Shown here piece by piece: positions 3,460 to 31,403 of a DNA stretch of 31,403 nucleotides. Location: the IMG/VR virus record IMGVR_UViG_2623620492_000013; one strand, written 5' to 3'. Source of the stretch: a virus (taxonomy: Duplodnaviria > Heunggongvirae > Uroviricota > Caudoviricetes). Each line of letters opens with the position of its first letter. Within the stretch, counting starts at the first letter, position 1. The notes beneath the pieces were generated by a model. That model saw nothing but the letters and a program-made list of their open reading frames with translations. It searched no databases and was not told the DNA's origin. Made by a program: the position numbers and the translations under genes.

Positions 3460-4093
3460 ACCATCCCGCCGTAAGTGCAAAGTATGCGGGGAATACTTCG
3501 TGCCGAAATTCCACGATATCCGGATCCGCTGGTGCAGCCCGGAGCACGGCGCAATCCTCGCGATGGAAGAACGTCAAAAGGAGAAGGTGAAAGCCGCTGC
3601 TAAGCGCATTAAGGAGCAGAAGGAGGCAGAGAAGGCCGGGCGCAAACGCCGCAAGGAGAGGCTGGCAGAGCTACGCCCAGCAGGTTACTACAAAGCGCAG
3701 GCTCAGCAGGCATTCAACGCCTACATCCGTGCGCGCGATGCTGATTTGCCATGCATCAGCTGCGGAGAGACCAACCCGCCAGATCTGCATGGCGGCCAAT
3801 GGGACTGCGGCCACTTCAAAACGGTCGGCGCTAACCCTGAACTGCGCTTTGAAGAGCGCAATGCCCATAAGCAGTGCAAATCCTGTAATGCCGGAGCGGG
3901 CAAATATACCGCCAAAGAGGCGACGGTAGCGCAGCAATACGAAGCTGGTCTGGTCGCTCGTTACGGGCAGGAGTACGTGGACTGGCTCAACGGCCCCCAC
4001 GAAATGACCAACTACCGCCGTGAAGACTTCATTCGGATCCGCGATGAATACCGCGCCAAGCTCAAAGCACTGAAACAGTGGGAGGCCGCATGA
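3452..4093 (+). CDS. ninG: NinG/Rap-family recombination protein
   Basis: N-terminal CKVC...WCSPEHG and central PCISCG...WDCGH...HKQCKSCN cysteine clusters match the lambda NinG pattern. Confidence 0.85.
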
Positions 4094-4206
4094 ACCAAGC
4101 CGATTTCCTCCGTTACCAGGCAGAAAGCGTTAAGCGCGCCAGCATGCCGCCAGTAGCAAAGCACAGCCAGACCAAAACCAACCAGCCTCAGAAGGAAGCC
4201 GCATAA
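4090..4206 (+). CDS. Small hypothetical protein (38 aa, absent from the ORF track)
   Basis: ATGA overlap with the ninG stop and ATAATG overlap with the Q start. Weak evidence. Confidence 0.3.
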   Translation: MNQADFLRYQAESVKRASMPPVAKHSQTKTNQPQKEAA

Positions 4207-4706
4207 TGAAACTGGAATTAACCAACGACCAGCATCAATGGGTAGACCAGTGGCTCCAGTTGTGGGGCGCATGGTGCCAGACCGGCAAGATTGATAAAGC
4301 GATGATCAACATGATTGCCAGATTCATGGCTACCGTCGAGCCCCAGCAAGCATCACGACCGGTATGTAGTGATGATGACGGGATGCTCATTGATGCTGTC
4401 ATTCGTCACTATCTGAAGAATGTGGATGAAAATGCCTGGCGGGTTGTCTTCGCCTACTACGTTTGTAACTCCAGCGAGATCCGAATTGCATCATGGCAGC
4501 ATGCAGTAAGTAAGCCTCGCCTGATGAAGACGCGTGGCGGAAATCAGTATAAACACCCAAGCATCTCGACAATCCGTAGAGAGGTGAAGCAAATCATCAA
4601 TGCCTCACTGTTCTGTTTGTACCAACCGCTGCAAAATGCGTTTAACAATCGCGAAAATGTGAGGAAAATTGCAAAAAATCCTCATAACGCGCTTGCTTTT
4701 CAATGA
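4206..4706 (+). CDS. Late-gene antitermination protein Q
   Basis: Position between the nin genes and the lysis cassette, followed by tandem intrinsic terminators. N-terminal QW/W-rich region resembles Q-family proteins as recalled. Confidence 0.7.
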   Translation: MKLELTNDQHQWVDQWLQLWGAWCQTGKIDKAMINMIARFMATVEPQQASRPVCSDDDGMLIDAVIRHYLKNVDENAWRVVFAYYVCNSSEIRIASWQHAVSKPRLMKTRGGNQYKHPSISTIRREVKQIINASLFCLYQPLQNAFNNRENVRKIAKNPHNALAFQ

Positions 4707-5316: not shown

Positions 5317-5824
5317 GAAGAGTGGCGCGGCCGGGATCGTTTGTTCAGTGGCTACAATTATCGCAATCGTGATGAATGCGGGCCATGTCAGGACTAACGA
5401 GCGCGGGCTGGAGTTAATCGGCAACGCTGAATCTTGCCGACGTGATCCGTATGTGTGCCCGGCAGGTGTGCTTACTGACGGAATGGGTAATACGCATGGC
5501 GTAAAGCTCGGAACCGTTAAGTCTGACCAGCAGATCGCAGCCGAGTGGGAGCGCAACATCCTTGATGCTGAGTTCTGTGTTAACCGCTACGGGAATGGCA
5601 GAAAGCTATCTGACAATACTTTCTCGGCAGCTGTATCGGTAACGTTTCGTGCTGGCTGCGGAAACATGCGCACCTCCACGATGTTCTCTCTTCTCAGAAG
5701 TGGGGATATCACGGCGGCATGCAACCAGTTCCCTCGCTGGGTATGGGGGGGAGGCAAGGTTCTGCCTGGTCTGGTTACTCGTGCCGGAAAAGAAGAAGCG
5801 CTCTGCCTGGACGGTGTGAAATGA
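5294..5824 (+). CDS. SAR endolysin (phage lysozyme, P21 R-like)
   Basis: N-terminal Gly/Ala-rich signal-anchor-release segment ([16 protein letters not shown]) and ELIGNAE...DPY.CPAGV...GNTHG lysozyme motifs. GTG start at 5294 overlaps the holin end. Confidence 0.85.
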
Positions 5825-6282
5825 GCCGGTTAACAGCAATCATCTGTGCTTTCGTTATATGTCTGCTGGTCTCCATGGACTGGGCGATTAACCATTACCG
5901 CGAAAACGCCATCACCTACAAAGAACAGCGCGATAAAGCCACTGAGAAACTCAGCCTGGCTAACGCCACCATAAAAGACATGCAGACCCGCCAGCGAGAG
6001 GTGGCTGCACTGGATGCCAAATACACCGGAGAACTGGCTGATGCGAAAGAAACCATTGAGCGTCTGCATAGCGATGTCATTGCTGGCCGTAAGCGGCTGC
6101 AGCTCAACGCAAACTGTCCCGCGAACGGAACGGCCGGCGCCAGCAGCATGGGCGATGCTTCCGGCCCCCGACTTACTGACTCCGCTGAACGGGATTATTT
6201 CACCCTCAGAGAGCGAATCGTCACAGTGACGAAGCAGGTCGGCTATCTGCAGGACTACATCAAAGAGCAATGTATTGAGTGA
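5821..6282 (+). CDS. Rz: i-spanin Rz
   Basis: N-terminal transmembrane segment then coiled-coil region; follows the endolysin; contains an embedded out-of-frame lipoprotein ORF. Confidence 0.85.
6044..6229 (+). CDS. Rz1: o-spanin Rz1 (lipoprotein embedded in Rz, +1 frame)
   Basis: [20 protein letters not shown] has a lipobox; Pro-rich mature part; lies wholly inside Rz. Confidence 0.8.
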
Positions 6283-16819: not shown

Positions 16820-17575
16820 ATGCAAGGCTGTGCTAATGATTTTGGCAAGCTGATCGGGAAAGTAGCTGTGCTACGCATGGCCTTTGGCTGCCCCGACGCA
16901 GTGCCAGCGCTTTCTGAGTGGAAGCGTCTCGGCGCTATTACGACCAAGGGTATCGACTATTCGATGAACACCATTAACTCCGAAGCTGATGATGCTAAAG
17001 GGCTGGTGGAAAACTTGGTCAACAACATGGATCTGACGATCTCCGGTGAAGGGGAGTTCCGCAAATCTGATAAAGATAACGAGATCGGCGCGTGGCGTCT
17101 GTCGAAGTACATCTTTGACGAAGTTCAGGCAGGCCGTCAGCCTAACCTGTGGGTGCGTTTCGACTTCGCTGGTGAGAACGCCGGTACTTACATCCAGGGT
17201 TACATGAACACAACGTCATGGTCTGGTGATTTCGGAACCAACGATATCTCCACGTTCTCCGGCGAGTGGAAGGTATATGACGCCGACACCGTTGTGTTTG
17301 AAGTCGCTGATTCCATCGCGGCCACTGGCGTCGAAGTTACCCCTGCAACTGCTTCCCTGGTCGTTGGCGCAACCCAGCAGCTGAGCGGCGCAGTTCAGCC
17401 AACCGATGCGACTAACAAGGCGATCACCTGGACGACTTCGGCGGCCTCTATCGCCACTGTCAGCTCAACCGGCCTGGTAACGGCCGTCTCCGCCGGCACC
17501 GCGACTATTACGGCTACCACTGCTGACGGTGACTTCACCGATACCTGCGCTGTTACCGTGACAGCCGCGCCGTAA
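16820..17575 (+). CDS. Major tail protein with C-terminal Ig-like (Big_2-type) domain
   Basis: 251 aa; the C-terminal 90 aa are Thr/Ala/Val-rich beta-strand repeats typical of Ig-like decorations on siphovirus tail tubes. Confidence 0.75.
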   Translation: MQGCANDFGKLIGKVAVLRMAFGCPDAVPALSEWKRLGAITTKGIDYSMNTINSEADDAKGLVENLVNNMDLTISGEGEFRKSDKDNEIGAWRLSKYIFDEVQAGRQPNLWVRFDFAGENAGTYIQGYMNTTSWSGDFGTNDISTFSGEWKVYDADTVVFEVADSIAATGVEVTPATASLVVGATQQLSGAVQPTDATNKAITWTTSAASIATVSSTGLVTAVSAGTATITATTADGDFTDTCAVTVTAAP

Positions 17576-17625
17576 TCACTACAAAGGGCGGCGTGCTGCC
17601 CTTGATACTGGTTATGGAGAACGAT

Positions 17626-18369
17626 ATGACACCCTTGAAAGAGATTGGCGAGTGCATGATTGGTGCTGGAGAGCGGGAATATTTCTTCCGGCCATCGTTC
17701 CGTAACATGACGCGGATCGGTGAACCAGAGCATATCGTCCGCACTTTCTACGCGCTGTTCAATGACGACGTGGCGAAGATGCTTGAGGCGGCGCGCGAAA
17801 TTCACAGTGCGATACCAGAGCATCAGCGCAGATTTTACGCCCACTATATCGGTGACGTTTCGCTGCCACGCTGGGCACTTGATGCAGCAGGCTCTGCCGC
17901 GTTTGTGCGTGAGGCATTACTCTCGGCTATTAACGTCATTCAGTCCTGCTGTGAAGAGGAAGTTTCAGAGCTGACAGGCTGGCATGAGCCATCACGCACT
18001 GGACGGCGCACATTCGTATGGCACCGCGGCGCGCTTCCGCCTGAGAACCTTATTCTGATAGCGCAGTCGCTGATCATGCATGGTGTTATCGGCAGGGCCA
18101 AGGTTCGTAAATTGCAGAAGCACGAAAGCAAGGAAACGACGCCGGAGTTTCACGCGACTGAATACATCATGGCGGCGAGAAACCATTTCGGGATCAGCAG
18201 GGAAGAGGCTGAAAACCTTACCATGACCGAATTCGCCATGATGCTTAACGCCAAATACCCTGACCAGAAAGGCTTCACCAGGGAAGAGTACGACGCTGTT
18301 ATGGACGATGACGATCGCCGCTGGCAGGAAATGGTTGAGCGCGAAAAATCAGCAAAAAAAGCGGCCTGA
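17626..18369 (+). CDS. Tail assembly chaperone
   Basis: Lies between the major tail and tape measure genes; acidic C-terminus. Confidence 0.6.
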   Translation: MTPLKEIGECMIGAGEREYFFRPSFRNMTRIGEPEHIVRTFYALFNDDVAKMLEAAREIHSAIPEHQRRFYAHYIGDVSLPRWALDAAGSAAFVREALLSAINVIQSCCEEEVSELTGWHEPSRTGRRTFVWHRGALPPENLILIAQSLIMHGVIGRAKVRKLQKHESKETTPEFHATEYIMAARNHFGISREEAENLTMTEFAMMLNAKYPDQKGFTREEYDAVMDDDDRRWQEMVEREKSAKKAA

Positions 18370-18441
18370 GTTAATAATGAATGTACCGTAATCGCCTGAC
18401 CGGGCGTAATATGGCTCGACAATAAAACTCAGGGGATAAGA

Positions 18442-18816
18442 GTGAAGAAAATACTTTTGGCTTTGGCTATTCCGCTGGCTCTGGCTGGCTGCAAGCCGGG
18501 TGAAGAAAAGGCAATTTCTTTGGCGCAATCAGAAGTTTCAGCAAACCTGCTTGATCCAAGCAGTGCGCAATTCCGCAACGTGAAAGTTGCAAAAATGATG
18601 GATGCTGACGAGGGCCGGGTCTTTGCTGTAGTTTGCGGGGAAATTAACGGCAAGAACGGTTTTGGGGCCTATGCAGGGTTTCATCCATTCTTCGTTGAGC
18701 TCAAAATGAAATCGAAGGGGATGTTCTCAAAAGGTGTCGACTACACCCTTGGTGATCACTTCCTCAGCTCGAAAGATACGCCACCACCGCCGGCCTACAT
18801 CGAACGATGCCAATAA
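18442..18816 (+). CDS. Lipoprotein (moron inside the tail module)
   Basis: GTG start with AGGGGA RBS. Signal peptide with lipobox LAGC and a PPPP stretch near the C-terminus. Own terminator downstream. Confidence 0.65.
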   Translation: MKKILLALAIPLALAGCKPGEEKAISLAQSEVSANLLDPSSAQFRNVKVAKMMDADEGRVFAVVCGEINGKNGFGAYAGFHPFFVELKMKSKGMFSKGVDYTLGDHFLSSKDTPPPPAYIERCQ

Positions 18817-18835
18817 ACGACACGAATAACAAACC

Positions 18836-18860
18836 CACCAACCGGTGGGTTTTTTTATGC
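18836..18860 (+). terminator. Intrinsic terminator
   Basis: cccacc-aacc-ggtggg hairpin followed by ttttttt. Confidence 0.6.
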
Positions 18861-18873
18861 CCGGAGAAAACTG

Positions 18874-21177
18874 ATGTCTGAGAAAGCAGGCGAGATTTAT
18901 TACGACATCGAGGCCGATGTATCTGGCTTGCTCAAGGCCCAGGGAAAGGCTAATAAGTCGCTCGACTCCATCGGCAACTCGGCGACCAATGCAGCCAAAA
19001 AGATGGATGAGTTGCAGACGAACATCAACCGCGTCGCCGGGGCAATTGCCGCCTCACTCGTTGTTGACTGGGGTAAGGCGTTTCTCGTAGCTGCTGACAA
19101 CATGAGCCAGCTCAACGCGCGTATAGAGAGGCTCACTGGTAGCGCAGCGACAGCCTCGCAGACTATGCAGAATCTGATGCGCATCAGTTCGGCAACGGGT
19201 GGTTCGCTACAGGATACAGCAAAGCTGTGGGAGACTCTCAGCACGGCGTTGCGCGATACCGGAGCGACCAACGGCCAGATAATCCAGCTTACCGAAACAC
19301 TTCAGAAAATAGGTCGCATTGGCGGATCCTCGACAGAAGAAATGGCGAATGCTCTTCGTCAGTTCGGCCAGTCAATTTCATCAGGTACTGTCCGGGCGGA
19401 GGAGTTCAACTCCATCCTTGAGCAAATGCCGGAACTGGCGCGCCAGATTGCCGCCGGGATGGGTGTAAGCATCGGAGAGCTTCGTCAGCTCATGCTGGAC
19501 GGGAAACTGACGGCAGAAGATGCTCTCAACGCCATTCAGAAGCAAACCGGCTCAGTGAATGCAGAGTTCGAGAAACTCCCGCGCACGCTTTCACAGGCTA
19601 ATACCGCGCTGACAAACTCATTCCTGTCGATGATTGACTCTGTTAACCAGGCGACTGGAGCAAGCACAGGGCTGGTTGCGGTTATCGATTCAATGACTGC
19701 TGCACTCGACCGGCTGGTGGGTAAAGCGGCGTCGGCAGATGCTCAGATATCGGATCTGAACAGCACCGCTGAAATGTTTACCCGCCGCGCGCGCACCTGG
19801 TCATGGCTTGGGCTTGATGGTTGGGAGGCGCAAAACAAAGCGCTGGCCGGGCTGAGTAATAAAGCCGCCATGCTGGTTGGCGACCTGGCCGCTGTTTCCA
19901 AAGCATCGCAGACCGCGGCTAACACAAAGCCGATCGAGATTAAAACGACCGCCTCAGCTACTGGCGGCAAAGCGAAAGGCGGAAAGTCTGCTGCACAGAA
20001 AGAAGCTGAGCAATACGCTAAAGCGCAGGACTCGATAAACGAAAAATTGGAAGCCCTGAGACAAGAATCTATTCTTGCAGCAGGTTCAACCAGCGAATTA
20101 ACCCGTGAGCAGCAACTACTAAGGGCAGAGATGTCTCTTGGTGCCGATGCAACGGATGAACAGCGACAGAAGGCAAGAGAGTACAAAGCACAGGCTTTGG
20201 ATACTGCTGAAGCATTGAAAAAGCAAGCCCAGGCAGAAAGAGATAAGCAAGCTGCGCAGTCCAACTTCAGCAGCCTACAAAGCCAAGCTTCTCCTGTGGC
20301 TAGCGTTGAAAGCCAGTTTCAGCAGCAGATTGAGCAACTCAACCAGTACGCTGCGCTCTATCCTCAGAAAATAGCTGAGGTAGAGGCTGTAAGGGCTAGC
20401 ATTGAGGAGCAATATCGCCAAAAAAGACTCGATGCTCAGTGGCAAGAATTAAGTCAAATGAATATCGGCTTCGGCATGCTAACGAGTGCCGTGGATGCCT
20501 TTGGCGGAAACGCATCAAACGTCATAACTGGACTGATCACAGGAACGATGTCAGCTCAGGATGCTATGCGCTCACTCGGTAACACGATGCTGAATAGCGT
20601 GGTAAATGCGCTAGTCCAGGTTGGGGTTGAGGCTCTCAAAAACTTCATTATCGGTCAGACATTGGGCGCAGCAGCTACTGCTGCTGGAGCATCTCAGGCT
20701 GCAATCTTGGCTACAGCTTGGGCTCCTGCCGCCGCCATGGCTAGCCTCGCTTCATTTGGGGCCAACTCAGTTCCTGCCATGACAGGAATTGCTTCAACGG
20801 TAGGCCTGGCACAGGGCCTTGCTTTAACCGGTATGCGTTACAATGGCGGCCCGGTGAATGCAGGAGGTCTTTATCAGGTCGGTGAGCGAGGGAAACCTGA
20901 GATTTACCAGGCCAGTACCGGTAAGCAGTACATGATACCGGGCGACAACGGCAGGGTGATCAGCAATAAGGACATGACTTCGGGTGGAGGGGGCGGTGCT
21001 CCGATTCTCAACATCTACAACTACTCATCCGCGTCTGTAGATGCTCAGGCTACACAGAACGGTGATGGTTCATGGACGCTTGAAGCTTTTATAGCTGACA
21101 TGAATAACGGCGGCCCGGCAAGCAACGCCATTACCAGCAACATGAACGTTAAACGCACGCCAAGAGGGCAGGGCTGA
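18874..21177 (+). CDS. Tail tape measure protein
   Basis: 767 aa, Ala/Gln-rich with low-complexity helical regions and a Gly-rich segment near the C-terminus. Confidence 0.9.
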   Translation: MSEKAGEIYYDIEADVSGLLKAQGKANKSLDSIGNSATNAAKKMDELQTNINRVAGAIAASLVVDWGKAFLVAADNMSQLNARIERLTGSAATASQTMQNLMRISSATGGSLQDTAKLWETLSTALRDTGATNGQIIQLTETLQKIGRIGGSSTEEMANALRQFGQSISSGTVRAEEFNSILEQMPELARQIAAGMGVSIGELRQLMLDGKLTAEDALNAIQKQTGSVNAEFEKLPRTLSQANTALTNSFLSMIDSVNQATGASTGLVAVIDSMTAALDRLVGKAASADAQISDLNSTAEMFTRRARTWSWLGLDGWEAQNKALAGLSNKAAMLVGDLAAVSKASQTAANTKPIEIKTTASATGGKAKGGKSAAQKEAEQYAKAQDSINEKLEALRQESILAAGSTSELTREQQLLRAEMSLGADATDEQRQKAREYKAQALDTAEALKKQAQAERDKQAAQSNFSSLQSQASPVASVESQFQQQIEQLNQYAALYPQKIAEVEAVRASIEEQYRQKRLDAQWQELSQMNIGFGMLTSAVDAFGGNASNVITGLITGTMSAQDAMRSLGNTMLNSVVNALVQVGVEALKNFIIGQTLGAAATAAGASQAAILATAWAPAAAMASLASFGANSVPAMTGIASTVGLAQGLALTGMRYNGGPVNAGGLYQVGERGKPEIYQASTGKQYMIPGDNGRVISNKDMTSGGGGGAPILNIYNYSSASVDAQATQNGDGSWTLEAFIADMNNGGPASNAITSNMNVKRTPRGQG

Positions 21178-21674: not shown

Positions 21675-22144
21675 TGCCTTCATATCGTGAATATAATCAG
21701 AAGCGCCCGATTAGCGGCTGTTACAACACCATCACGTTCTATCACCCCTCCTTTGGTTACGTCCGCCTCGTCGACAAACAGTTCTTCCCGAAGACGCTTG
21801 GCGGCCAGACGTACACGCCTGCGCGGTTTGAAATCGAAGAGAGCCAGCAGAGCGGAACTCCGGTAATCGACGCAACGGTGAAGCTTGGGCGACTGTCTTC
21901 AGATATCAAAACGCTGATGAAGAAGTGGAGTGGTGTTTCCAGGCTGTCGCCTATCACGGCAACTCGTCAGGTTTTCGATAGAGTTGATACCTCTACGCCA
22001 ATGAAGAATTGGACATTATTTGTAAAAACTGTCGATGTTGTTTCAGATAACGCATCAGTTACTTTATCAATGACAAACCCGCTAAATAACAACATTGGCC
22101 AACCATATGATCCAGTCGAATACACGGGGCTTCAGTACCTCTGA
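21674..22144 (+). CDS. Minor tail protein (DUF1833-like)
   Basis: 156 aa, translationally coupled. Confidence 0.55.
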   Translation: MPSYREYNQKRPISGCYNTITFYHPSFGYVRLVDKQFFPKTLGGQTYTPARFEIEESQQSGTPVIDATVKLGRLSSDIKTLMKKWSGVSRLSPITATRQVFDRVDTSTPMKNWTLFVKTVDVVSDNASVTLSMTNPLNNNIGQPYDPVEYTGLQYL

Positions 22145-22523
22145 TTTTATCAGCAGGATGATCGGCGTGCCGTGGTCTAACCGCGCCTGCTCATTCGAAA
22201 AGACTGATTGCTGGGGGCTGGTTGTGCTGTATTACCGACATGTGCTCGACATTGAGCTGCACCAGACGCCGGGTTACGAAGCCGGGGAGGATTTCTTCAC
22301 CTGCTATCAGGGAGACGTCGTTTTCTGGCGCAAGGTCGATAAACCGGTCGACGGGGGGATATTTGTCGGGTACCGCGGCGCGCAACCGGCGCACGTTGGC
22401 CTGGTACTGAACCGGCAGGCGCTGCACTCGCGTGGAGAGAACGGAAGCGTGCGCATGGACTCGTTGCTGGTCATTCAGCGGGCATTCACCAAAGTGGAGT
22501 TTTTCGAATATGGCGCTGGTTGA
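22095..22523 (+). CDS. Tail-associated NlpC/P60-family peptidase (start uncertain: 22107 or 22158)
   Basis: TDCWGLV cysteine motif with a downstream His, typical of NlpC/P60 tail proteins such as lambda gpK. Confidence 0.6.
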   Translation: MANHMIQSNTRGFSTSDFISRMIGVPWSNRACSFEKTDCWGLVVLYYRHVLDIELHQTPGYEAGEDFFTCYQGDVVFWRKVDKPVDGGIFVGYRGAQPAHVGLVLNRQALHSRGENGSVRMDSLLVIQRAFTKVEFFEYGAG

Positions 22524-24987
22524 GATATCGAATTTTCCAGGAACGCCTAAGCTGCGTTGCAGGGTGCCAAACGGCACCCTTTTTTATGACTGGCTGGCGG
22601 CCAATGACGCCACTTTCCACCGCGATCTGCTGATCGTCCGCAACGGCGTAAAGCTGGGCGACGATGATGAGCTGGCGTTTGAGCTGAGCGAGCTGGACCA
22701 CATCCAGATATTCGACCAGCCAAAGGGTATTGTCGATGACATCCTGAGCCCGATCTTTAAAGTGGTTGGTCAGGTATTTTCTTTCCTGGCGCCGAAGCCA
22801 GCTATTGCAAACAACGGCGGTAATACCGTCGACTCGCCCAACAATAGCCTGACCGGTCAGACAAACACCGCGCGCGTCTACAAAGCCAAGCCGGACATCT
22901 ACGGGCAGATTCGTTCGTTCCCGGATCTGATCCAGGAATCAGTATTCGAATACGTACACCAGACTTCCACAGACGGCGGCCTGAAGTACGTCACTGAATG
23001 GATGTGTATTGGGATCGGCAAATACGATTACGAGTCTGTGCGCTACTCAGAATCAAGCCTGGGCTCTCTGGCTGGTGCCGAATTCCAGTTCTTCCAGCCA
23101 GGAGAAGTTATCCCGCAGATCGTCGAGGGATACGGGTTCGATGACGTTGACGGCCAGGAGGTTCCCGGGCAGAACGAAGCCAGCGACTTCCCGATCGAAA
23201 CAGCAACGGCAAACACGGTGGTCAGCGGAACGTATTCCGGCGGCCAGATAGCGATGAAAATCGTGAAACAAGCCGAGTTCGATTATTTCATGGGGCTGGT
23301 TCTGCCGCACGCTGTGACTTTCACCATCAACGTGACGTACAGCACGGCCTCAGGCAGCGTCACCACCGACGCGACATTCTCAGGCACGCTGATTTCAGCG
23401 GTTGAAACAAACGACGGTGCAGTGGTTAACCCGGTGCGCTGGTACACGTTTACGATGAACCAGCTCGAGGGACCACAGGACATCCCGGCGAATGCCACTA
23501 TCAACACCACGAAATTCATCCTCAACGATAACGAGGCGCTGGTGGTTGGGCCGTTCTTTTCCCCGGTCGAGTCAACGCAGCTGTGGCTGCATACCCAGTC
23601 CAGCCTCGGTGGTAAGAAGGAGACAAACTGGAAGGTTGTCATCTGGAAAATCGACGACGACTACAACCAGGTGCCGGGAACGCAGCAGACGTTTACGTAC
23701 CGGCAGACGACGCCGCACCAGTCGACGAGCGAGGTGTTTTATCGCACTGACAAGATCACTCCGACCGGCGGGTTCGGGAAATACGCGGTCAGCTTCCAGC
23801 GCACGGATAACTCCGGTGACGCGTCACTGCTGAAGGTAGAAGAGATCCACAGCATCAACATCAGGACAAACGTCGTTCACCCGACCGACACGCTTGTGCG
23901 AGTAAAAGTCCGGGCGACAGAGAACGCTCTTGGCAGCCGCGAGCGCAAATATAACGCACTGGTGACGCGCCATACCATTACGTACGACCTGGACACGCAG
24001 ACGGTGGATTACACCCTGAGGCCGTCGCGCTCGTTCGCTGATGCAGTGGCTCACACCTGGCTCATCATGGGTGAGCAGCCGGTAAGCAGCATTGACCTGT
24101 ACGGGCTGTACTCGATCGCCGAAAGCCTGCCTGATGAGCGACTGGGCTACTTCGACTACACGTTTGACGACGAGAACGACTCACTCGGCGACCGCGTGCA
24201 GGCGATCTGCAATGCGGCGTCGGTGGTGGCGTACTGGGATGACGGCGTGCTGACGTTTACTCGAGACCAGAAGGTTGATTACCCGGCGGCCGTATTCAAC
24301 CGGGCCAACATGAAGACGGACGAGTACAAAATGACGTACGAAGCTACTCTTCCAGGCGGTTATGACGGCGTGCAGGTGTCCTACGTTCACCCGACCACGA
24401 ACAACAAGACGTACATCAACTACCGCGTGCTGAACGGCGCTATCGTTGAACAGGAAGCGGAGAACCCGAACAAGCTGGAGATCGTCGGCTTCCGTAATGA
24501 GTATCAGGCCAGGGAGCGAGCTCTGCGCGAAACCAAGCGCCTGATCTACTCGCGCGTGAAGATGAACGCGAAAGTGTTTGAGGACGGCATTATCCAGGTC
24601 GGTAGCGTCATCCAGATGCCAGACATCTATGACAGCAACCAGCAGGGTGGTTACGTCACCGGCCGCTCCGGGAATGACTTCGATACCAGCGAGCCGATCA
24701 CGTTTACCGGCTCGATGTATGTGCTGGTTACCGACAGCCTGGGTAACCCAACTCTGCGTTATCCGGCCACCGCCCGTAGCGACACGAAGTACGGATTCAC
24801 CGCGGCTATCCCTAACATTCAGCTCAACATATGGAACGGTGACACTGTGCAGCTACCGTCGCGCTATCTCATCGCGACAGTGGAAGAGCTGGACAGTCAG
24901 CTATGGACGGTCAACAGCATCAAACCGAACACAGACAATACGGTTTCCCTGACGATCGCAGAGTACAGCGACGCCATCTACCAATAA
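22510..24987 (+). CDS. Tail tip / central tail fibre protein (host specificity protein)
   Basis: About 825 aa starting at the ATG overlapping the previous gene's end; last large gene of the tail block, followed by a terminator. Confidence 0.75.
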   Translation: MALVEISNFPGTPKLRCRVPNGTLFYDWLAANDATFHRDLLIVRNGVKLGDDDELAFELSELDHIQIFDQPKGIVDDILSPIFKVVGQVFSFLAPKPAIANNGGNTVDSPNNSLTGQTNTARVYKAKPDIYGQIRSFPDLIQESVFEYVHQTSTDGGLKYVTEWMCIGIGKYDYESVRYSESSLGSLAGAEFQFFQPGEVIPQIVEGYGFDDVDGQEVPGQNEASDFPIETATANTVVSGTYSGGQIAMKIVKQAEFDYFMGLVLPHAVTFTINVTYSTASGSVTTDATFSGTLISAVETNDGAVVNPVRWYTFTMNQLEGPQDIPANATINTTKFILNDNEALVVGPFFSPVESTQLWLHTQSSLGGKKETNWKVVIWKIDDDYNQVPGTQQTFTYRQTTPHQSTSEVFYRTDKITPTGGFGKYAVSFQRTDNSGDASLLKVEEIHSINIRTNVVHPTDTLVRVKVRATENALGSRERKYNALVTRHTITYDLDTQTVDYTLRPSRSFADAVAHTWLIMGEQPVSSIDLYGLYSIAESLPDERLGYFDYTFDDENDSLGDRVQAICNAASVVAYWDDGVLTFTRDQKVDYPAAVFNRANMKTDEYKMTYEATLPGGYDGVQVSYVHPTTNNKTYINYRVLNGAIVEQEAENPNKLEIVGFRNEYQARERALRETKRLIYSRVKMNAKVFEDGIIQVGSVIQMPDIYDSNQQGGYVTGRSGNDFDTSEPITFTGSMYVLVTDSLGNPTLRYPATARSDTKYGFTAAIPNIQLNIWNGDTVQLPSRYLIATVEELDSQLWTVNSIKPNTDNTVSLTIAEYSDAIYQ

Positions 24988-25044: not shown

Positions 25045-27021
25045 ATGGCTACGACACCTACCAACCTGTCAGTACCGAGCGAGTCCCCCCGCGATCTGAA
25101 ATTTAACGCAGGGAAAATTGATGAATTTGTGACATCGCTGGCACTTCAGTACATTGATCGCTTTGGCAATGCTCATTACACCATCGAAGGCCTGCGCTGG
25201 ATGGCGCAGCAGGCTATTTCCCAGTATGGGTGGGTTCCGATCGGAACATTCCAGGATGGTGCAACATTAACTCTGCCTAACCAAATCCTGAAAGACACCA
25301 CCGACGGTGAATACTATCGCTGGGACGGTTCATTTTTGCCATCAGGGAAGGTTGTGCCAAATGGTTCTACGCCAGGATCAACAGGTGGGGTTGGTGTAGG
25401 TGCATGGATAAGTGTTGGTGATTCGGCATTGCGCTCAATGCTTGCTTCTGAGCAAGGAGTTTCCATGGTTGGCGGCATTGCCATGGAGCTCGACTCTCAG
25501 GCCGATTTGGCAACAAACACAACTGTTCAGGGACGGCTGGTGGCAGTAAAGAACACTGTCGGTAGTTACAATAAATACTCCATAATTCCAAACTCTGGTG
25601 TGCTTGGCGATGGCGATGTAATCATCGACAGGGTGGATGGATTGCAGGCAGAGCTTCAGATTGAAGGGGTTCTGGATGTACGGGCTTTTGCAAAGTCTGG
25701 TAGGACAGACCAACAAATAATTCAGGCGGCATTAGATTACGCTGGATCTAAATCAGGTCATTGGGTTGTTGGCTTGACGGCCAAAGATAAAACCGGAACA
25801 CCATGGAGATTCAGCACACTTAACGTACCTGACAGCACTGTTTTTCAGGGGCATGGTGGCGCTCTTAAGCTAAATGACAATGTCTGTGTCGATGCTTCAG
25901 TTAGCTATTACTTGCTGCATAACATAAACGGCAATGATGTATGGCTGGACGGGTTATATATCGATGGCAATATGAGCAATAACTCCTTGTTCACCGTTGC
26001 TGATCTTGTAACCCTCATCGGAGAAGGGTCAAAAATCACCAATTGCACCCTTATGAATGCCCCCGACTCTGGTCTAATGTTCTCAGGTGTAAAGAATGGT
26101 CTAGCGTCTGCAAACACCATCGGCAATGGCAGAGATGTTGCTATCTATGCAAATGCAAGCGCAGACGGCAGCGCAAGGAACAATGTGTTATCTGACAATG
26201 TTCTGTACGGATTCCCGGCAGGAGGAATAGGATTTAAACGTTATTTTGCTGATTGTGTAGCCAGCGGGAACGCAATTTATCTCTGTGGAAACGGCGTGAC
26301 ATTTGAGGACTTTACTGTTGAGACCGAAGGTAAATTCCCCAAAAGGATTACGCTGTCTGGTACTTTTATGCGAGACATCGGCTTTCCACACCGCGCCACT
26401 GCTAACGTAGCAGAGCGAGGAATTAGCATTCAGCGTGCCTCTGATATCAGCATCACTGGTCTTCAGACAGTTAACGTTTCTGGCAATATATTATACATTG
26501 GAAATGGCACAGATATCTGCGTTGATAACGCCATGCTTAGAGGTTATGTTGCAAGTCCACAAAGCAACGGAAATAACGGAGTGCTAGTCGTTAATGCCCA
26601 AGGAGGGCACCTGAGTAATGTGAATGTTACCGCAGTGGCAAGCAGGGCAGGATATTTCCAGACCGTTAATGGCATGTCCGTTCGTGGCGGAAGATGGGTC
26701 AGTTCAGGGACTCAGTCTGGCATCAGGGTAGATGCTACCGCTCAATTTTCAATATTTAATCCTGACTATATTTCTGGTGGATCTGGAGCTGACGAAGAGT
26801 GGTTTGAAGGAGCAACAGGGATATCGAACGGATACATCCGGGCTAATGCAACAGGCCCAGGCAGATACGGAATAAGAGAGCTTTCTGCTGGGCAGGGCAC
26901 TAACCCAAATACAAGGCTTATCCCCAGATTTATTGGAGAGAAATGCGTTACCTTGTCAGATAGCGCAATCTGGATGGCAAAAGGTATGTCTAACTCTGAT
27001 TGGGTTAAGTTATCTAACTGA
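25045..27021 (+). CDS. Tail spike protein with right-handed beta-helix domain (putative polysaccharide depolymerase)
   Basis: 658 aa. The N-terminal ~110 aa look like a conserved tail-attachment module. The rest has Gly/Asn/Val-rich repeats (GNGRDVAIYANASADGSARNNVLSDNVLYG) typical of pectate-lyase-like beta-helices, and is more AT-rich than the N-terminus. Confidence 0.75.
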   Translation: MATTPTNLSVPSESPRDLKFNAGKIDEFVTSLALQYIDRFGNAHYTIEGLRWMAQQAISQYGWVPIGTFQDGATLTLPNQILKDTTDGEYYRWDGSFLPSGKVVPNGSTPGSTGGVGVGAWISVGDSALRSMLASEQGVSMVGGIAMELDSQADLATNTTVQGRLVAVKNTVGSYNKYSIIPNSGVLGDGDVIIDRVDGLQAELQIEGVLDVRAFAKSGRTDQQIIQAALDYAGSKSGHWVVGLTAKDKTGTPWRFSTLNVPDSTVFQGHGGALKLNDNVCVDASVSYYLLHNINGNDVWLDGLYIDGNMSNNSLFTVADLVTLIGEGSKITNCTLMNAPDSGLMFSGVKNGLASANTIGNGRDVAIYANASADGSARNNVLSDNVLYGFPAGGIGFKRYFADCVASGNAIYLCGNGVTFEDFTVETEGKFPKRITLSGTFMRDIGFPHRATANVAERGISIQRASDISITGLQTVNVSGNILYIGNGTDICVDNAMLRGYVASPQSNGNNGVLVVNAQGGHLSNVNVTAVASRAGYFQTVNGMSVRGGRWVSSGTQSGIRVDATAQFSIFNPDYISGGSGADEEWFEGATGISNGYIRANATGPGRYGIRELSAGQGTNPNTRLIPRFIGEKCVTLSDSAIWMAKGMSNSDWVKLSN

Positions 27022-28255
27022 AGTCAGGCCGCTGATGCGGCCTTTTCTCTGATAAAAACTGATTTATTAACTGCATAGTGTAAATAAGCATTAATACTTG
27101 AAAAACGAAAAGTACTCTCTTGCCTGAGCCATATGCTGAAGGCGAGAACATAATCATCATCACTGACGCACACGCCAGGAGAATGGTGAAACAACTGTAA
27201 AATGCATCATTTTTACACCTGGCATTAAAAACTGCGAGGCATATCATTGAACTAATTGTCAGTAGAGTCACTGCGTGAGATATGTAAACAGTAGTTCCAG
27301 CCCAATTACTTCCTGATAGATAATTAGAGTTTACCATTCCTTTGAATATATTCGCCCCAAGGAGAAAAGATAAGAACATTATTAATTTTACGGCTACAAT
27401 CGCAGCCGAAATTGATGGCAGGACTTTAAAATCTTTTCTTTTCACATAGAGTAACAACAAAGTAAGCATAGCGATATTGATTAGTACGTTGCCAGAAGAT
27501 GATACGTGACTGCTTAAGACATCCACACCTATTGATAGTTTTTGAAAGATGCCATAGCTAACGTAATCTGGAAGCCAGTTTTTTGACTCACTAAAATATC
27601 TTAACTTATTACCGGGAGCAGAAAAAAGAATAATGGCGCAAGCAATAGTTGTAACGAACATTGCGGCTATGATTGGAGTTATCCTTTTGAGATAGATAGC
27701 TCTGCATGCTAGAAATATCAAGAAGCAGATAGATATCTGTTCGTTGAACCCAAAGTACATAGCAGGTAAAACAGAGAGTGACTTAAGTATAATATTTAAT
27801 GATTTCTCGTTAAGTACTGCATAAACAGACAGTAGGCAAAGAGTTGCTGGCATTAGATAGTTATATGACCCTGCGATCCACCATGATGCATCCGCATTAA
27901 CTTCAGGTTCTATTAAGAAAAACATAAATAAAGAAACTGTGAAAGGAATCATCGCTCCTTGCTTTTCTCGAAGAGTTATCTTACTTATAATAAAAGATAT
28001 CAAAATAACACATGCTGGTATGAAAGTTTTCCAAAAGTATTCATAACGTATTGTATAGACCATGAGAGCATCTATAGTTAATCTCCCACTCCATTTTATA
28101 TATCTGTCATATATAACATCATATACATTAGAGTTTAAAAGCAAGCGTGAGAAATTTAAATCATCTCCTGAGTGACGCAAGGATAAACCAGAAAAAAGAA
28201 ATGCAATAATAGCGATAATAAGCATGGCGGCAGTGACTTTTATGGCCACTATCAT
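27014..28255 (-). CDS. Polytopic inner-membrane protein (putative serotype-specific O-antigen glucosyltransferase, GtrC-like)
   Basis: About 413 aa, many predicted transmembrane helices, very AT-rich, last gene of an operon that begins gtrA-gtrB. Start taken at ATG 28255 (TAAAATG junction); 28282 is the alternative. Confidence 0.6.
   Translation of the reverse strand: MIVAIKVTAAMLIIAIIAFLFSGLSLRHSGDDLNFSRLLLNSNVYDVIYDRYIKWSGRLTIDALMVYTIRYEYFWKTFIPACVILISFIISKITLREKQGAMIPFTVSLFMFFLIEPEVNADASWWIAGSYNYLMPATLCLLSVYAVLNEKSLNIILKSLSVLPAMYFGFNEQISICFLIFLACRAIYLKRITPIIAAMFVTTIACAIILFSAPGNKLRYFSESKNWLPDYVSYGIFQKLSIGVDVLSSHVSSSGNVLINIAMLTLLLLYVKRKDFKVLPSISAAIVAVKLIMFLSFLLGANIFKGMVNSNYLSGSNWAGTTVYISHAVTLLTISSMICLAVFNARCKNDAFYSCFTILLACASVMMIMFSPSAYGSGKRVLFVFQVLMLIYTMQLINQFLSEKRPHQRPDFS
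27026..27047. terminator. Hairpin between the convergent tail spike and gtr genes
   Basis: aggccgc-tgat-gcggcct palindrome. It overlaps the last codons of the reverse-strand membrane protein gene. Confidence 0.45.
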
Positions 28256-28256
28256 T

Positions 28257-28721
28257 TTATTTGCATTGGTAATGGATTTCATAATTATGGAGTCCGTCGT
28301 TAATCAATATAGCAATATTGCCAGTGAATTTTTTAACCTTTTTGTTTCTTACTTGAGAGTTAAACCCAGAGCGATCATAAAGCAATGGTTTTCCAAAAGC
28401 TCGACTTACATCACTTCTTCTGGTCATTGACTTGGGTATGCGCAACCATTTATCTCCGCCTATGCCAGCATAGATATTAACACTATAAAGTGTTTGCAAA
28501 TTGTAGTTTTTTACTGCTGCCCAACCATTAACTACAAGTCTGCCGTCCTCAACCCGGCATCTATCTATATGATATATAATTCCTGAACTTGTTTTAGCAT
28601 TGTCAAATTTAAATGTCGAAACGTCTGCTTTGTTAATATAAAAATAAAAGCCAGCAGGCAACATAATAGATGTTACAAACAATCCGACAAGTAATGTTTT
28701 TACAGGTAGTGAGACCTTCAT
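28257..28721 (-). CDS. Membrane-anchored hypothetical protein in the gtr operon
   Basis: 154 aa with one N-terminal transmembrane segment and a soluble domain. Coupled to gtrB upstream (ATGA) and the membrane protein downstream. Confidence 0.55.
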
Positions 28722-29635
28722 CCTTTCCTCTTCAAAATATATCTAGGACGGCTCTTTACTTCGGTGTAAATTCTTCCGATGTACTCACCAAGCACCCCGA
28801 TACCAATCAATTGGACTCCACCAAGGAAAAGGATAGAAACAAGAAGTGACGGGTAGCCCCGCACTGCGTTACCAAAAGCAAGGGTATCAACTATCATCCA
28901 TGAGCCATAGAGGAACGCCACGCCTGCAACCAGAAGGCCGATGTAAGTCCACATGCGAAGCGGGAAAGTAGAGAAACTCGTGATACCCTCAAGTGCCAGG
29001 TTCCACAACTTCCAGCCGTTAAATTTCGTACTTCCTGCGACGCGTTCTGCGCGGGCATATTCAACGACATCTGTACGGCCGCCAACCCAGCTCAATACGC
29101 CCTTCATGAACAGGTTGCGCTCTGGCATGAGCTTAATGTTTTCCACCACCTCGCGGGACATAAGGCGGAAGTCACCAACGTTTTCTTCAATCTTCGGGTT
29201 GCTGATTTTGTTGTGCAGCTTATAGAACCATTCAGCGGTCTTGCGCTTCAGTCTGCCATCTGTAGAGCGATCAGAGCGTTTAGCGAGAACCATATCAGCA
29301 CCGGCCTGCCATTTCTCGATAAGGTGAGGAATGACTTCGATAGGGTCCTGCAAGTCTACGTCAATCGGGATAATTGCTTCACCGGTCGCGTGGTCAAGGC
29401 CGGCGAACAGGGCTGGTTCTTTCCCAAAGTTACGAGTAAATGACAATGGAACAACAAGCGTATCGGCAACAGCAAGCGCGTTAATAATTGATTCTGTCGC
29501 GTCTTTGCTGCCGTCATTGATGAATACTATCTCGACTTCATGCTGCTGAAGGCCTTCAAATTCCCGAACCGTTTTATAAAAAATCGGTATCGCGTCTTCT
29601 TCGTTGAAGACGGGAACGACCAGAGAAATTTTCAT
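28718..29635 (-). CDS. gtrB: Bactoprenol glucosyltransferase GtrB (GT2 family)
   Basis: 305 aa with the N-terminal glycosyltransferase-2 fold motif VVPVFNEE...INDGSKD and two C-terminal transmembrane helices; close match to GtrB as recalled from Shigella and Salmonella serotype-converting phages. Confidence 0.9.
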
Positions 29636-29994
29636 TTCGCATCCCTAAAGACAATAAACTTAGAATAGAAAAAGCCACATACAAGACTAATGGCGGAGAA
29701 CGCCACCAGTGTGACGATTGGCGGTAAGCCACACCTGTCAGCAGCCCAACCTACAGCAGCACTCAGCGTTCCCATAAACCCAACGTAAAGCATGTAACGC
29801 AGCGTGGAAGTGGATGCTTTAAAAGTGAAGCGTGCGTTAGCGTAGAAACTAAAGCTGACGGCTACCACGAAACCTGCAAAGTTAGCCAATGCCTGACTTG
29901 TGGATAGGCCATACACGCAAACACCAAACACGACCCAGTGAATGAGTGTGTTCAGTACGCCAATCGATGTGTACTTAGCAAAAAGTTTTAACAT
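29632..29994 (-). CDS. gtrA: Bactoprenol-linked glucose translocase GtrA
   Basis: 120-aa four-helix membrane protein; [20 protein letters not shown]...FIVFRDAK matches GtrA closely. Confidence 0.9.
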
Positions 29995-30109: not shown

Positions 30110-30349
30110 ATGCCGCGTCGTTCAGATATCGTGATCGCCTTCAGAGCCTCTATTGTGCATGAAAGGTCAGGCCGCAGGATTGTGAAAACTGCTGATTTTG
30201 TTCAGGAACTACTAAAGGTCAACTGGGACCTAAGTATGGAAGAGGCGAATCAGTGGATAGATAGGTACACAACCTGCTTCAAAGACATCACTCCTGACCA
30301 CGGAGAGAACAAGACGTGGTTCATGTACAACCCGAATGGAGGGCTTTGA
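30110..30349 (+). CDS. Hypothetical 79-aa protein, first gene of the LexA-box operon
   Basis: ATG at 30110 directly downstream of the LexA box; the longer reading frame from 30047 would include the box. No similarity recognised to DinI or other known small SOS proteins. Confidence 0.5.
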   Translation: MPRRSDIVIAFRASIVHERSGRRIVKTADFVQELLKVNWDLSMEEANQWIDRYTTCFKDITPDHGENKTWFMYNPNGGL

Positions 30350-30350
30350 T

Positions 30351-30734
30351 ATGGCATTTGCATCCCCGGCTAAGGACTATGTGGAGCGCGGCATCTCTTT
30401 AGATGCTGAGTTGATTAGCCATCCATCGGCGACTTACTATGTCAGGTCTGATGTGGCTATTTTGCGTGCCGGCATTAAGCAAGGCGCGCTGCTTGTCGTG
30501 GACTCAGCAGTAAATCCATGTGATGGCTCGATCGTTCTCTGTTCCATCGATGGCCAGTTTGTCCTGAGGTATTACCGTATGTTCCCATGCTTGCATCTGG
30601 AGAACATGGAGACAGGTCGGAAGGAAAGGGCGCGCGGACTCGACGACGGAAGTGCAATCGATGTTTTCGGCGTGGTGACATACATCATTAACAATGCGCG
30701 CACCGGTGAATTCGACGACAACCCGGTTATTTAA
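30351..30734 (+). CDS. UmuD'-like protein (pre-truncated UmuD homologue, HumD-like)
   Basis: Aligns by eye with E. coli UmuD from Gly25 onward (ASPAKDYVE..., HPSATY, LLVVDSA, DVFGVV). GGAGG RBS 8 nt before ATG 30351; the alternative start is 30336. The Ser and Lys positions of the catalytic dyad appear substituted in my manual alignment. Confidence 0.7.
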   Translation: MAFASPAKDYVERGISLDAELISHPSATYYVRSDVAILRAGIKQGALLVVDSAVNPCDGSIVLCSIDGQFVLRYYRMFPCLHLENMETGRKERARGLDDGSAIDVFGVVTYIINNARTGEFDDNPVI

Positions 30735-31403
30735 TCAGACGGGCTCGATTAACTCCGGGCCCTGATTCTTCACATTACCAACAGCGCGCGACACTGCGTG
30801 CCAGATAAATGCATCTGCTGGCACCGAACCGTCGGAAACAATCTCCTCTGCTTCTTTCCCGCCCACATCCTGCCGCATCCATTCGCGTGCTGCTTCCGGT
30901 GACAGAACGAGTTGCCTGCGGTCGTGAATATCGACCAGTCCTTTATCGGCAGCCGCCGTGACTATCATAAAGCCTTCCGCTTCATCATCACGCTCAAACG
31001 GCGTACTGCCTATCGCCGCCATGAATATCGGCTTACCGTCCGCCCGATGAATGAAGTACGGCTGCTTCTTTTCGCCTTGCTTCTTCCATTCGAACCAGCC
31101 ATCAGCAAAGACTATCGCCCGGCCATGTTGCCAGAGCGGTTTGAACATCCGACTGGTGGCCGCAGTTTCCACACGTGCGTTTATCAGAGGCGGCTTATCC
31201 CACCATCCTGGAGCATAGCCCCAGTAAACCGGATCGAGGTGTAGTTGTTCATCTCGTTCGCTCAGCAGCAAAACTTTAGTGCCTGGCGCCACGTTGTACC
31301 GGCCAATGGGTTCCGGGTCGAACGGAATGTCACACTCGGCCTCTTCAGCGATTAACGCCAGATAATCTTCACGGGTCATTGATTGAGAGAAACGTCCGCA
31401 CAT
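30735..31403 (-). CDS. yedK: SOS-response-associated peptidase (SRAP), YedK-like host gene
   Basis: 222 aa starting MCGRF (the Cys2 nucleophile is the SRAP hallmark); the start codon is the last three bases of the window. Confidence 0.8.
   Translation of the reverse strand: MCGRFSQSMTREDYLALIAEEAECDIPFDPEPIGRYNVAPGTKVLLLSERDEQLHLDPVYWGYAPGWWDKPPLINARVETAATSRMFKPLWQHGRAIVFADGWFEWKKQGEKKQPYFIHRADGKPIFMAAIGSTPFERDDEAEGFMIVTAAADKGLVDIHDRRQLVLSPEAAREWMRQDVGGKEAEEIVSDGSVPADAFIWHAVSRAVGNVKNQGPELIEPV

Follow-up and report, generated by a model that had tools for sequence, protein, structure and literature searches.

A candidate phage-exclusion lipoprotein gene of the moron type in the chaperone-to-tape-measure slot of an Enterobacter-like lambdoid prophage

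Introduction

The term 'moron' was coined for the slot that holds gene 15 of phage HK97, the product of which is expressed from the prophage and blocks genome entry without blocking the receptor, in a manner that depends on the incoming tail (PMC3594210). A role in superinfection exclusion is described for TP-J34 Ltp, a lipoprotein of an exclusion family (PMC3952083). Cor (phages phi80, N15, HK022 and T1) and Llp (phage T5) are small lipoproteins that exclude phages and whose genes lie near tail genes. The target of Ltp is a tape measure protein, and Spackle of phage T4 acts in the periplasm to inhibit gp5, the tail lysozyme of that phage. Lpp021 and Lpp010 of mEpimmI are lipoproteins encoded in the structural cluster of temperate coliphages; when expressed from a plasmid they exclude the cognate phages, with a specificity that tracks the outer-membrane receptor, OmpA or LamB (PMC11893012). 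P-FimU, another envelope defence gene of a tail cluster, is located between the genes for the tail tube and the chaperone (PMC12952977). Gene product 20 (gp20) of Salmonella phage ES18, a homologue of the protein studied here, is described in its GenBank record as 'possible moron; function unknown'. Here we analyse a 31,403-nt stretch of tailed-phage DNA (IMG/VR record IMGVR_UViG_2623620492_000013; the window, by which we mean the entire stretch) and describe an independently translated moron-type gene, located in the slot between the chaperone-position and tape measure genes, within the Q-antiterminated late operon of an Enterobacter-like lambdoid prophage. Its product is predicted to be a lipoprotein exported by the Sec/Lsp route, and it probably serves as a cell-envelope protection factor.

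Results

A separate gene for an exported lipoprotein

The initial annotation of this locus had proposed a gene for a 124-aa secreted lipoprotein between genes in the chaperone and tape measure positions, and the ORF, its Shine–Dalgarno sequence, its lipobox and the DUF6246 and TMP_3 matches of the flanking genes all bear this out (Table 1). In the ORF list and the raw sequence alike, the reading frame (18442–18816, plus strand) opens with a GTG codon 6 nt downstream of the Shine–Dalgarno sequence AGGGG (18431–18435), and the translation begins MKKILLALAIPLALAGCKPGEEK. The N-terminus consists of MKKILLALAIPLALAG followed by the cleavage site, such that the mature part, of 108 aa, opens with CKPGEEK. 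The lipobox, L-A-G-C, spans residues 14–17 (Cys17 codon at 18490–18492) and fits the pattern [LVI][ASTVI][GAS]C, whilst the Pfam model LPAM_1 matched with an E-value of 0.0039 and 18 bits, slightly below its 20-bit cut-off; the lipobox Cys is kept in most homologues. As the residue at position +2 after Cys17 is Lys, not Asp, the +2 rule predicts that the Lol system would sort the lipoprotein to the outer membrane.

That this ORF is a real gene and no chance ORF follows from its 161 homologues at E ≤ 1e-3, its match to PHROG 2320 (E 4.8e-32, residues 1–102) and a median dN/dS of 0.067 (653 sequence pairs; 37 distinct alleles of the same tail-module lineage). The gene is under purifying selection, with a value comparable to those of the DUF6246 gene (0.049) and the major tail protein gene (0.033) in that lineage. 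As all three frames carry stops between the DUF6246 stop and the lipoprotein start, the lipoprotein is encoded by a separate cistron, and a frameshifted (G/GT-like) extension of DUF6246 is excluded. The 3′ end of the DUF6246 gene carries an A7 run (18351–18365; CAGCAAAAAAAGCGG), and every frame beyond it stops within ~30 codons, so that a long frameshift product is impossible in the window. The record for ES18 gene 17, the DUF6246 homologue, reads 'possible +1 frameshift at 3' end'.

The slot is accessory and bordered by a conserved junction

The same tail module was present in 13 of 5,426 complete Escherichia coli genomes, in which the slot has three states. It holds the lipoprotein gene in strains XJ5.2 and M37H, a gene for an unrelated 119-aa protein with a Sec signal in GB089 and three sister genomes, and no gene in CUPF06, where a 36-nt gap from the DUF6246 gene to the tape measure gene holds the hairpin. 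Because these near-identical prophage tail modules have the slot empty or otherwise filled, the lipoprotein gene is accessory, of moron type and dispensable for the tail module. Its earlier designation as a moron was thus upheld: the gene is absent from or replaced in collinear sister modules, is followed by a terminator, differs in base composition (GC content of 0.47–0.50 over 18300–18900 vs 0.54–0.58 on either side) and occupies the slot of HK97 gene 15. For the cargo of the GB089 type (locus L005, 3158–3517), we note a C-terminal Cys and no Pfam match; its hit to the lipoprotein family profile was borderline (hhalign 65 %, E 6e-5, 57 columns), and it may be a very distant relative. Over the same loci of the lineage (L017–L064), median dS was 0.66 for the lipoprotein gene vs 0.42 for the DUF6246 gene and 0.34 for the major tail protein gene, which suggests a cargo history partly separate from that of the flanks.

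Alignment places the left border of the slot at the 3′ end of the DUF6246 gene and the right border at a hairpin–TTTTTTTATGCCYGGAGA junction 5′ of the tape measure start. This junction is found with the lipoprotein gene, with other cargo or with an empty slot, and is kept even where the tape measure proteins are only 37–50 % identical. Across the three slot states, changes in its stem are compensatory (CCCGC/GCGGG vs CCCAC/GTGGG). It lies at 18817–18873 in the window, at 3518–3605 in locus L005, at 5571–5606 in L006 and at ~6385–6448 in L069, L072, L085 and L090. The conserved junction could act as a recombination boundary for cargo exchange. In the window, the GC-rich hairpin (18831–18852) reads AAACCCACC-AACC-GGTGGGTTT and begins 14 bases 3′ of the lipoprotein stop; the ribosome-binding site of the tape measure gene, GGAG, is at 18863–18866. 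The terminator that the initial annotation had ascribed to the lipoprotein gene is therefore real as regards hairpin and T-run, but is a feature of the junction rather than of this gene alone, because the same hairpin and T-run precede the tape measure gene in slots that are empty or hold other cargo. A terminator was found 3′ of family members in nearly every setting examined.

Other cargo of such slots, in the chaperone-to-tape-measure position and in the position between K and I genes elsewhere, includes KilA-N/Rha-like genes, RNase T and DUF4041. In phage T5 (L191, 11778–12530) an HNH endonuclease gene lies between the chaperone and tape measure genes, and in HK97 (L193, 6061–6325) a 32-aa hydrophobic ORF with a terminator lies between K and I. 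A multi-gene cargo block at L069 contains a second small lipoprotein gene (5689–5889; 66 aa, lipobox LSGC) directly 5′ of the family member.

A large phage-borne family found beside unrelated tape measure genes

A search with the family profile returned 13,320 clusters (50 % identity) at E ≤ 1e-3 and 5,777 at E ≤ 1e-10, and pattern scans of IMG/VR found at least 486 viral contigs with a member. The family, which comprises PHROG 2320, ES18 gp20 and the 'lipoprotein' of Gordonia phages, is very large, uncharacterized and mostly phage-borne, occurring in phages of Enterobacteria, Pseudomonas, Acinetobacter, alpha-proteobacteria and Gordonia. Named members are found in ~39 Gordonia phages, Pseudomonas phages AUS531phi and PAJU2, Acinetobacter phage Ab105-2phi, Paracoccus phage Pkon1, Escherichia phages Fraca and LMessi and Salmonella phages SEN4, SEN5 and ES18. 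Inspected gene by gene, 11 of 13 contexts were phage or prophage, with one chromosomal and one beside transposase fragments. At the nucleotide level, a megablast search of 50,697 phage genomes with the locus returned no match and an exact 60-mer of the locus was absent from the GTDB species representatives; its closest genomic relatives are from Enterobacter.

All 52 of the close IMG/VR loci had the order DUF6246, lipoprotein, tape measure. In farther tail modules, with a DUF6246 protein ~47 % and a tape measure protein 31–50 % identical, or with classical G/T-type chaperones, the family member was the last cargo gene, 44–64 nt 5′ of the tape measure gene and often preceded by one to four other cargo genes; a Rhizorhabdus wittichii prophage shows the same arrangement. 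The strand opposite to the tail operon carries the gene, in or adjoining the slot, in Gordonia phage Bosnia, Paracoccus phage Pkon1 and contig L099. A second, divergent sample comprised 80 viral contigs, 73 of them with an identifiable family ORF. For 24 of these 73, the family ORF was 12–75 nt upstream of an ORF of ≥ 870 aa, and the one such large neighbour that was checked is a tape measure protein (PHROG 339, E 0); another 23 had the position seen in Fraca, between lambda-K-like (NlpC/P60) and I-like genes. The large proteins encoded next to family members form at least seven unrelated clusters, in addition to those of ES18, Gordonia and Paracoccus. Other positions were the ogr/att end of P2-like prophages, beside a CI-like S24 repressor gene, beside a helix–turn–helix (HTH) regulator gene and inside a head module.

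The domain also occurs in two independent fusions, with SPOR in AUS531phi (7e-16) and with PG_binding_1 in Pkon1 (7.5e-07). The anchor is interchangeable within the family, being a lipid, a peptidoglycan-binding domain, a transmembrane segment or none, and the conserved feature is exposure to the periplasm, or to its equivalent in Gordonia. Among the long family members, most have a Pro-rich tail of low complexity and one contains an SH3_3 domain; these additions are uninformative.

Conserved motif and predicted fold

In an alignment of 59 homologues, residues D38, P39, S41, F44, C65, G66, N72, G75, Y77, G79 and F83 were invariant and C123 near-invariant, giving the family motif D-P-x-S-A-x-F ... 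C-G-x-[VI]-N-x-K-N-x-x-G-x-Y-x-G-F with a C-terminal Cys. The same motif was found in members from ES18, Gordonia, Pseudomonas and Paracoccus. The near-invariance of the C65/C123 pair suggests a probable periplasmic disulfide, whilst residues 48–62 and 108–121 vary among close homologues. The mature protein is predicted to form a ~100-residue alpha+beta domain of the cystatin/NTF2-like kind, a resemblance at the level of the fold only, with 5–17 % sequence identity to cystatin, NTF2-like and VirB8-like folds. Its most conserved residues map to the beta2–beta3 hairpin and the connector from the helix to beta1; the QxVxG motif of cystatins is absent, the hairpin reading GEINGKNGFGAYAG.

Database searches with the protein gave few matches. 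Pfam, NCBIfam and PADLOC returned only the lipobox model, and no superinfection-exclusion family was among its PHROGs, Pfam, NCBIfam and PADLOC matches. Pfam gave no family match for the 59 homologues or for 25 further members. Sequence searches of the PDB, by single sequence and by profile, gave chance matches only (E > 0.5), and Foldseek found nothing below E 1e-3 in the PDB. Against BFVD, Foldseek matched only unannotated phage lipoproteins, the best being the 'Lipoprotein' of Gordonia phage Sidious. MliC, PliC, Ivy and Bor showed no match in sequence or fold.

Transcription signals

A consensus scan of positions 17500–19500 found no sigma-70 promoter site with 9 of 12 matches. By scan and alignment, the leader of the window gene keeps only TAATAT (18407–18412) and lacks the TG, a −35 box and a terminator further upstream. 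Relatives that are ~50 % identical have a conserved TTGCCA-N16-TGnTAnnAT element ~31 nt 5′ of the start and a terminator further upstream, which is the textbook layout of a moron; this element was seen in the pre-tape-measure slot, in the K/I slot and in the P2-like phage SEN5. The TAnnAT remnant of the window type sits at the same distance from the start as the extended −10 of these relatives, and the promoter of the window copy looks degenerate. A Q antiterminator is encoded at 4206–4706. In lambdoid phages, Q-modified late transcription is expected to proceed through the terminator, and unmodified transcripts to stop before the tape measure gene. Given these signals, most of the lipoprotein is probably produced from the late operon, and independent or constitutive transcription is presumably weak at most.

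Other features of the prophage

The features of the locus and of the O-antigen modification cassette are listed in Table 1. A beta-helix tailspike gene (25045–27021; Tail_spike_N and Beta_helix) is followed by this minus-strand cassette (25045–29994 for the two together), which also has a 154-aa ORF and constitutes a second, classical module for lysogenic conversion and exclusion in the prophage. The phage's own NlpC/P60 endopeptidase is encoded at 22095–22523. A fragment of a DDE transposase gene lies at the start of the window (16–723), and at its end are a umuD-like gene for an S24 peptidase and, on the minus strand, a gene for SRAP (30336–30734 and 30735–31403). In E. coli XJ5.2, genes for an S24 peptidase, a Y-family polymerase and SRAP are likewise found 3′ of the prophage tail genes. 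The tail module of the XJ5.2 sister prophage (L003, 25736–33426) contains ISEcp1-blaCTX-M-15, remnants of Tn3 and IS3, and qnrS1, inserted between the post-tape-measure genes and the NlpC/P60 gene.

Table 1. Positions of features at the lipoprotein locus and in the O-antigen modification cassette of the window
Feature	Position	Strand	Remarks
Major tail protein gene, with Big_2 domain	16820–17575		
DUF6246 gene, tail-assembly-chaperone position, left border of slot	17593–18369	+	Pfam DUF6246 8.5e-72; PHROG 791
Leader, 72 nt	18370–18441	+	AGGGG 18431–18435; weak −10-like TAATAT 18407–18412
Lipoprotein coding sequence	18442–18816	+	124 aa; PHROG 2320/ES18 gp20 family
Predicted signal peptide and lipobox	18442–18492	+	Residues 1–17, LAG/C; read directly from sequence
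Intrinsic terminator	18831–18859	+	9-bp stem, 4-nt loop, T-run; best terminator match in 17500–19500
Tape measure gene, right border of slot	18874–21177	+	Pfam TMP_3 6e-58; PHROG 1107/1538
DUF6056 membrane protein gene	27014–28282	−	O-antigen modification cassette
gtrB	28718–29635	−	O-antigen modification cassette
gtrA	29632–29994	−	O-antigen modification cassette

Discussion

That the lipoprotein is an exclusion factor, as the initial annotation had proposed, is plausible. We tentatively favour a periplasmic factor that acts after adsorption and does not mask a receptor. Following lipidation at Cys17 and sorting to the periplasmic face of the outer membrane, the lipoprotein would guard the cell against incoming phages that have already adsorbed. 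It may do so by hindering the tail tip or tape measure protein in crossing the periplasm and the peptidoglycan, or by disturbing a conserved envelope component that this crossing requires; unlike Cor and Llp, it would not mask a single outer-membrane receptor. Precedents for such a mechanism are HK97 gp15, from the same slot, TP-J34 Ltp and T4 Spackle. An exclusion role is suggested by relatives that have placements typical of prophage-expressed genes together with signals for independent transcription, the latter being indicated by the extended −10 and upstream terminator, by the opposite strand, and by repressor, HTH or ogr/att neighbours. A further indication is that family members recur next to tape measure and tail-tip genes, since exclusion genes of known function are often neighbours of the gene whose step they block. 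The SPOR and PG_binding_1 fusions, together with the near-invariant Cys pair, point to the periplasm or peptidoglycan as the site of action, and a single outer-membrane receptor is made unlikely by a motif that is invariant across hosts that share none (Gordonia, Paracoccus, Pseudomonas and Acinetobacter). The breadth of the family and its fusions would thus point to a conserved target at the periplasmic or peptidoglycan level.

A number of observations weigh against this interpretation. The window copy is without a clear promoter, and its expression in the lysogen is thus only presumed. Some family members are chromosomal or lie in myovirus prophages. Furthermore, both the chaperone-to-tape-measure and the K/I positions are general hotspots for cargo, and for this reason position alone is no proof that the lipoprotein is functionally linked to the tape measure protein. 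The diversity of tape measure proteins is also much too great for an invariant motif to have them as direct partner, and a conserved component of the wall or envelope, or a conserved enzymatic module of the tail, is a more likely partner than the hypervariable tape measure protein. The searchable literature yielded no experiment on any family member, and no functional study of DUF6246, of ES18 gp20 or of the Gordonia chaperone-to-tape-measure lipoproteins.

A more specific version of a periplasmic exclusion factor, which we consider quite unlikely, would have the family represent widespread, unrecognized periplasmic inhibitors with a cystatin-like fold that neutralize the wall-degrading or wall-penetrating activity of incoming siphovirus tails. 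Their targets would be the NlpC/P60-type lambda-K-like protein, a papain-like enzyme, or lysin modules of the tape measure protein. Exclusion of the Spackle kind would then be conserved from Gordonia to Enterobacteria, and, as the gene travels with the tape measure or K-like gene, each tail module might bring its matching 'immunity'.

Somewhat unlikely, in our view, is a function in host fitness (lysogenic conversion), in which the protein would be a cystatin-like periplasmic inhibitor or binder directed against exogenous peptidoglycan hydrolases (animal lysozymes, type VI amidase effectors or bacteriocins) or against envelope stress, in a role like that of lambda Bor or of MliC, PliC and Ivy. 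The inhibitor-like fold, with its strongest conservation in the beta2–beta3 hairpin and the helix–beta1 connector, is consistent with this, as are the fusions to peptidoglycan-binding domains, the enormous size and taxonomic breadth of a family with some plainly chromosomal members, and the presence in the same prophage of a conversion cassette, gtrABC. However, none of MliC, PliC, Ivy and Bor is matched in sequence or fold, 11 of the 13 inspected contexts are phage or prophage, and the frequent adjacency to tape measure or tail-tip genes, even on the opposite strand, would be left unexplained.

It is unlikely that the lipoprotein is instead a helper of the lytic cycle, made with the late genes and not expressed in the lysogen, that keeps progeny from being lost on debris or on cells already infected, a function that T5 Llp also has, or that modulates the wall or lysis late in infection. 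As the window type has no terminator between the DUF6246 and lipoprotein genes and no recognizable −35 box or extended −10, its gene would be transcribed with the Q-antiterminated late operon. Divergence within the lineage is also roughly in step, with identities of 54 % for the lipoprotein, ~47 % for DUF6246 and 42–50 % for the tape measure protein. Nevertheless, some relatives have their own promoter, others are encoded on the strand opposite, and others again adjoin genes for a repressor or an integrase, all of which speaks for expression outside the late programme, and the gene is dispensable in sister prophages.

The initial annotation had gone further and likened the protein to Cor and Llp, which would make it an outer-membrane lipoprotein that inactivates the receptor of its own phage. 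We regard this as improbable. It is a small, predicted outer-membrane lipoprotein from a tail gene cluster; Cor, Llp and the mEpimmI Lpp proteins, which exclude OmpA- or LamB-dependent phages (PMC11893012), provide precedents, and the variable residues 48–62 and 108–121 could carry specificity. The comparison with Cor and Llp by profile methods did not sustain the likeness. Against Fraca Cor, BLASTP and hhalign aligned only residues 1–20 or 1–23, that is, the signal peptide, and against T5 Llp the family profile aligned only the 20-residue signal peptide and lipobox. Cor and Llp differ further in being ~77 aa long, in acting on FhuA and in their narrow host range, and their genes adjoin receptor-binding genes (llp of T5 is divergent from oad, and cor of Fraca is 3′ of J), whereas in the window the genes for TipJ (22432–24987) and the tailspike are 3.6–6 kb downstream. 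Additionally, phage Fraca has a separate cor gene in addition to its family member, the motif stays invariant in members from hosts with unrelated surfaces, including Gordonia, some variants are anchored to peptidoglycan, and the dN/dS value indicates no overall diversifying selection.

It is extremely improbable that the protein is a structural or assembly component of the tail, such as a second chaperone or a tape-measure-associated protein, as only its position in the tail assembly block and co-divergence with that block speak for this, whilst the cleavable lipoprotein signal peptide would export it from the cytoplasm, where tails assemble, the gene is absent or replaced in otherwise near-identical tail modules, and the family also occurs at the ogr/att end of P2-like myovirus prophages and beside repressor genes.

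By itself, the locus adds a further moron at a textbook position, and its homologue ES18 gp20 had already been flagged as one. Of greater worth is the family, with at least 13,000 clusters, no Pfam or NCBIfam model and no published function found; it is almost always phage-borne and, in unrelated tail modules from two phyla, is strikingly often an immediate neighbour of the tape measure gene. If the favoured role in exclusion is correct, these would be among the most widespread envelope-level anti-phage proteins known, with a bearing on the host range of therapeutic phages against lysogens of Enterobacter, Klebsiella, E. coli, Pseudomonas and Acinetobacter. If they are instead general inhibitors of wall hydrolases, they would constitute a new prophage-borne fitness factor.

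Comparison with known systems

TP-J34 Ltp and T4 Spackle would be functional analogues only: they are exported and stop infection after adsorption, but they have other folds and hosts, are not expected to be homologous to it and, unlike the gene for the window lipoprotein, their genes are not known to lie beside a tape measure gene. The mEpimmI Lpp proteins appear unrelated in sequence to the window family, and no mEp phage was among the tblastn matches of three family queries to 50,697 phage records. Tail-assembly interference of the Tai type was rejected, Tai genes being upstream of the packaging genes and their products not lipoproteins. HK97 gp15 shares both slot and layout, with chaperone genes, a gene for a small envelope protein, a terminator and the tape measure gene in succession. 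It differs in being a 62-aa inner-membrane protein that is no lipoprotein and has no folded periplasmic domain; homology of HK97 gp15 to the family was rejected (hhalign probability 0.4 %).

ES18 gp20 (NC_006949, 12786–13241) is a homologue, with a lipobox (LTAC), the motif KDPESAKF...VNAKNSYGGYTG and a C-terminal Cys, although at 151 aa it is only ~26 % identical to the window protein. Unlike the window, the ES18 locus has a terminator 5′ of gp20 and two more cargo genes, 18 and 19, the latter with DUF4041. The gene order is otherwise shared, running in ES18 from the major tail protein gene (16) and the DUF6246 gene (17) through cargo genes 18 and 19 to gp20, a terminator and the tape measure gene (21).

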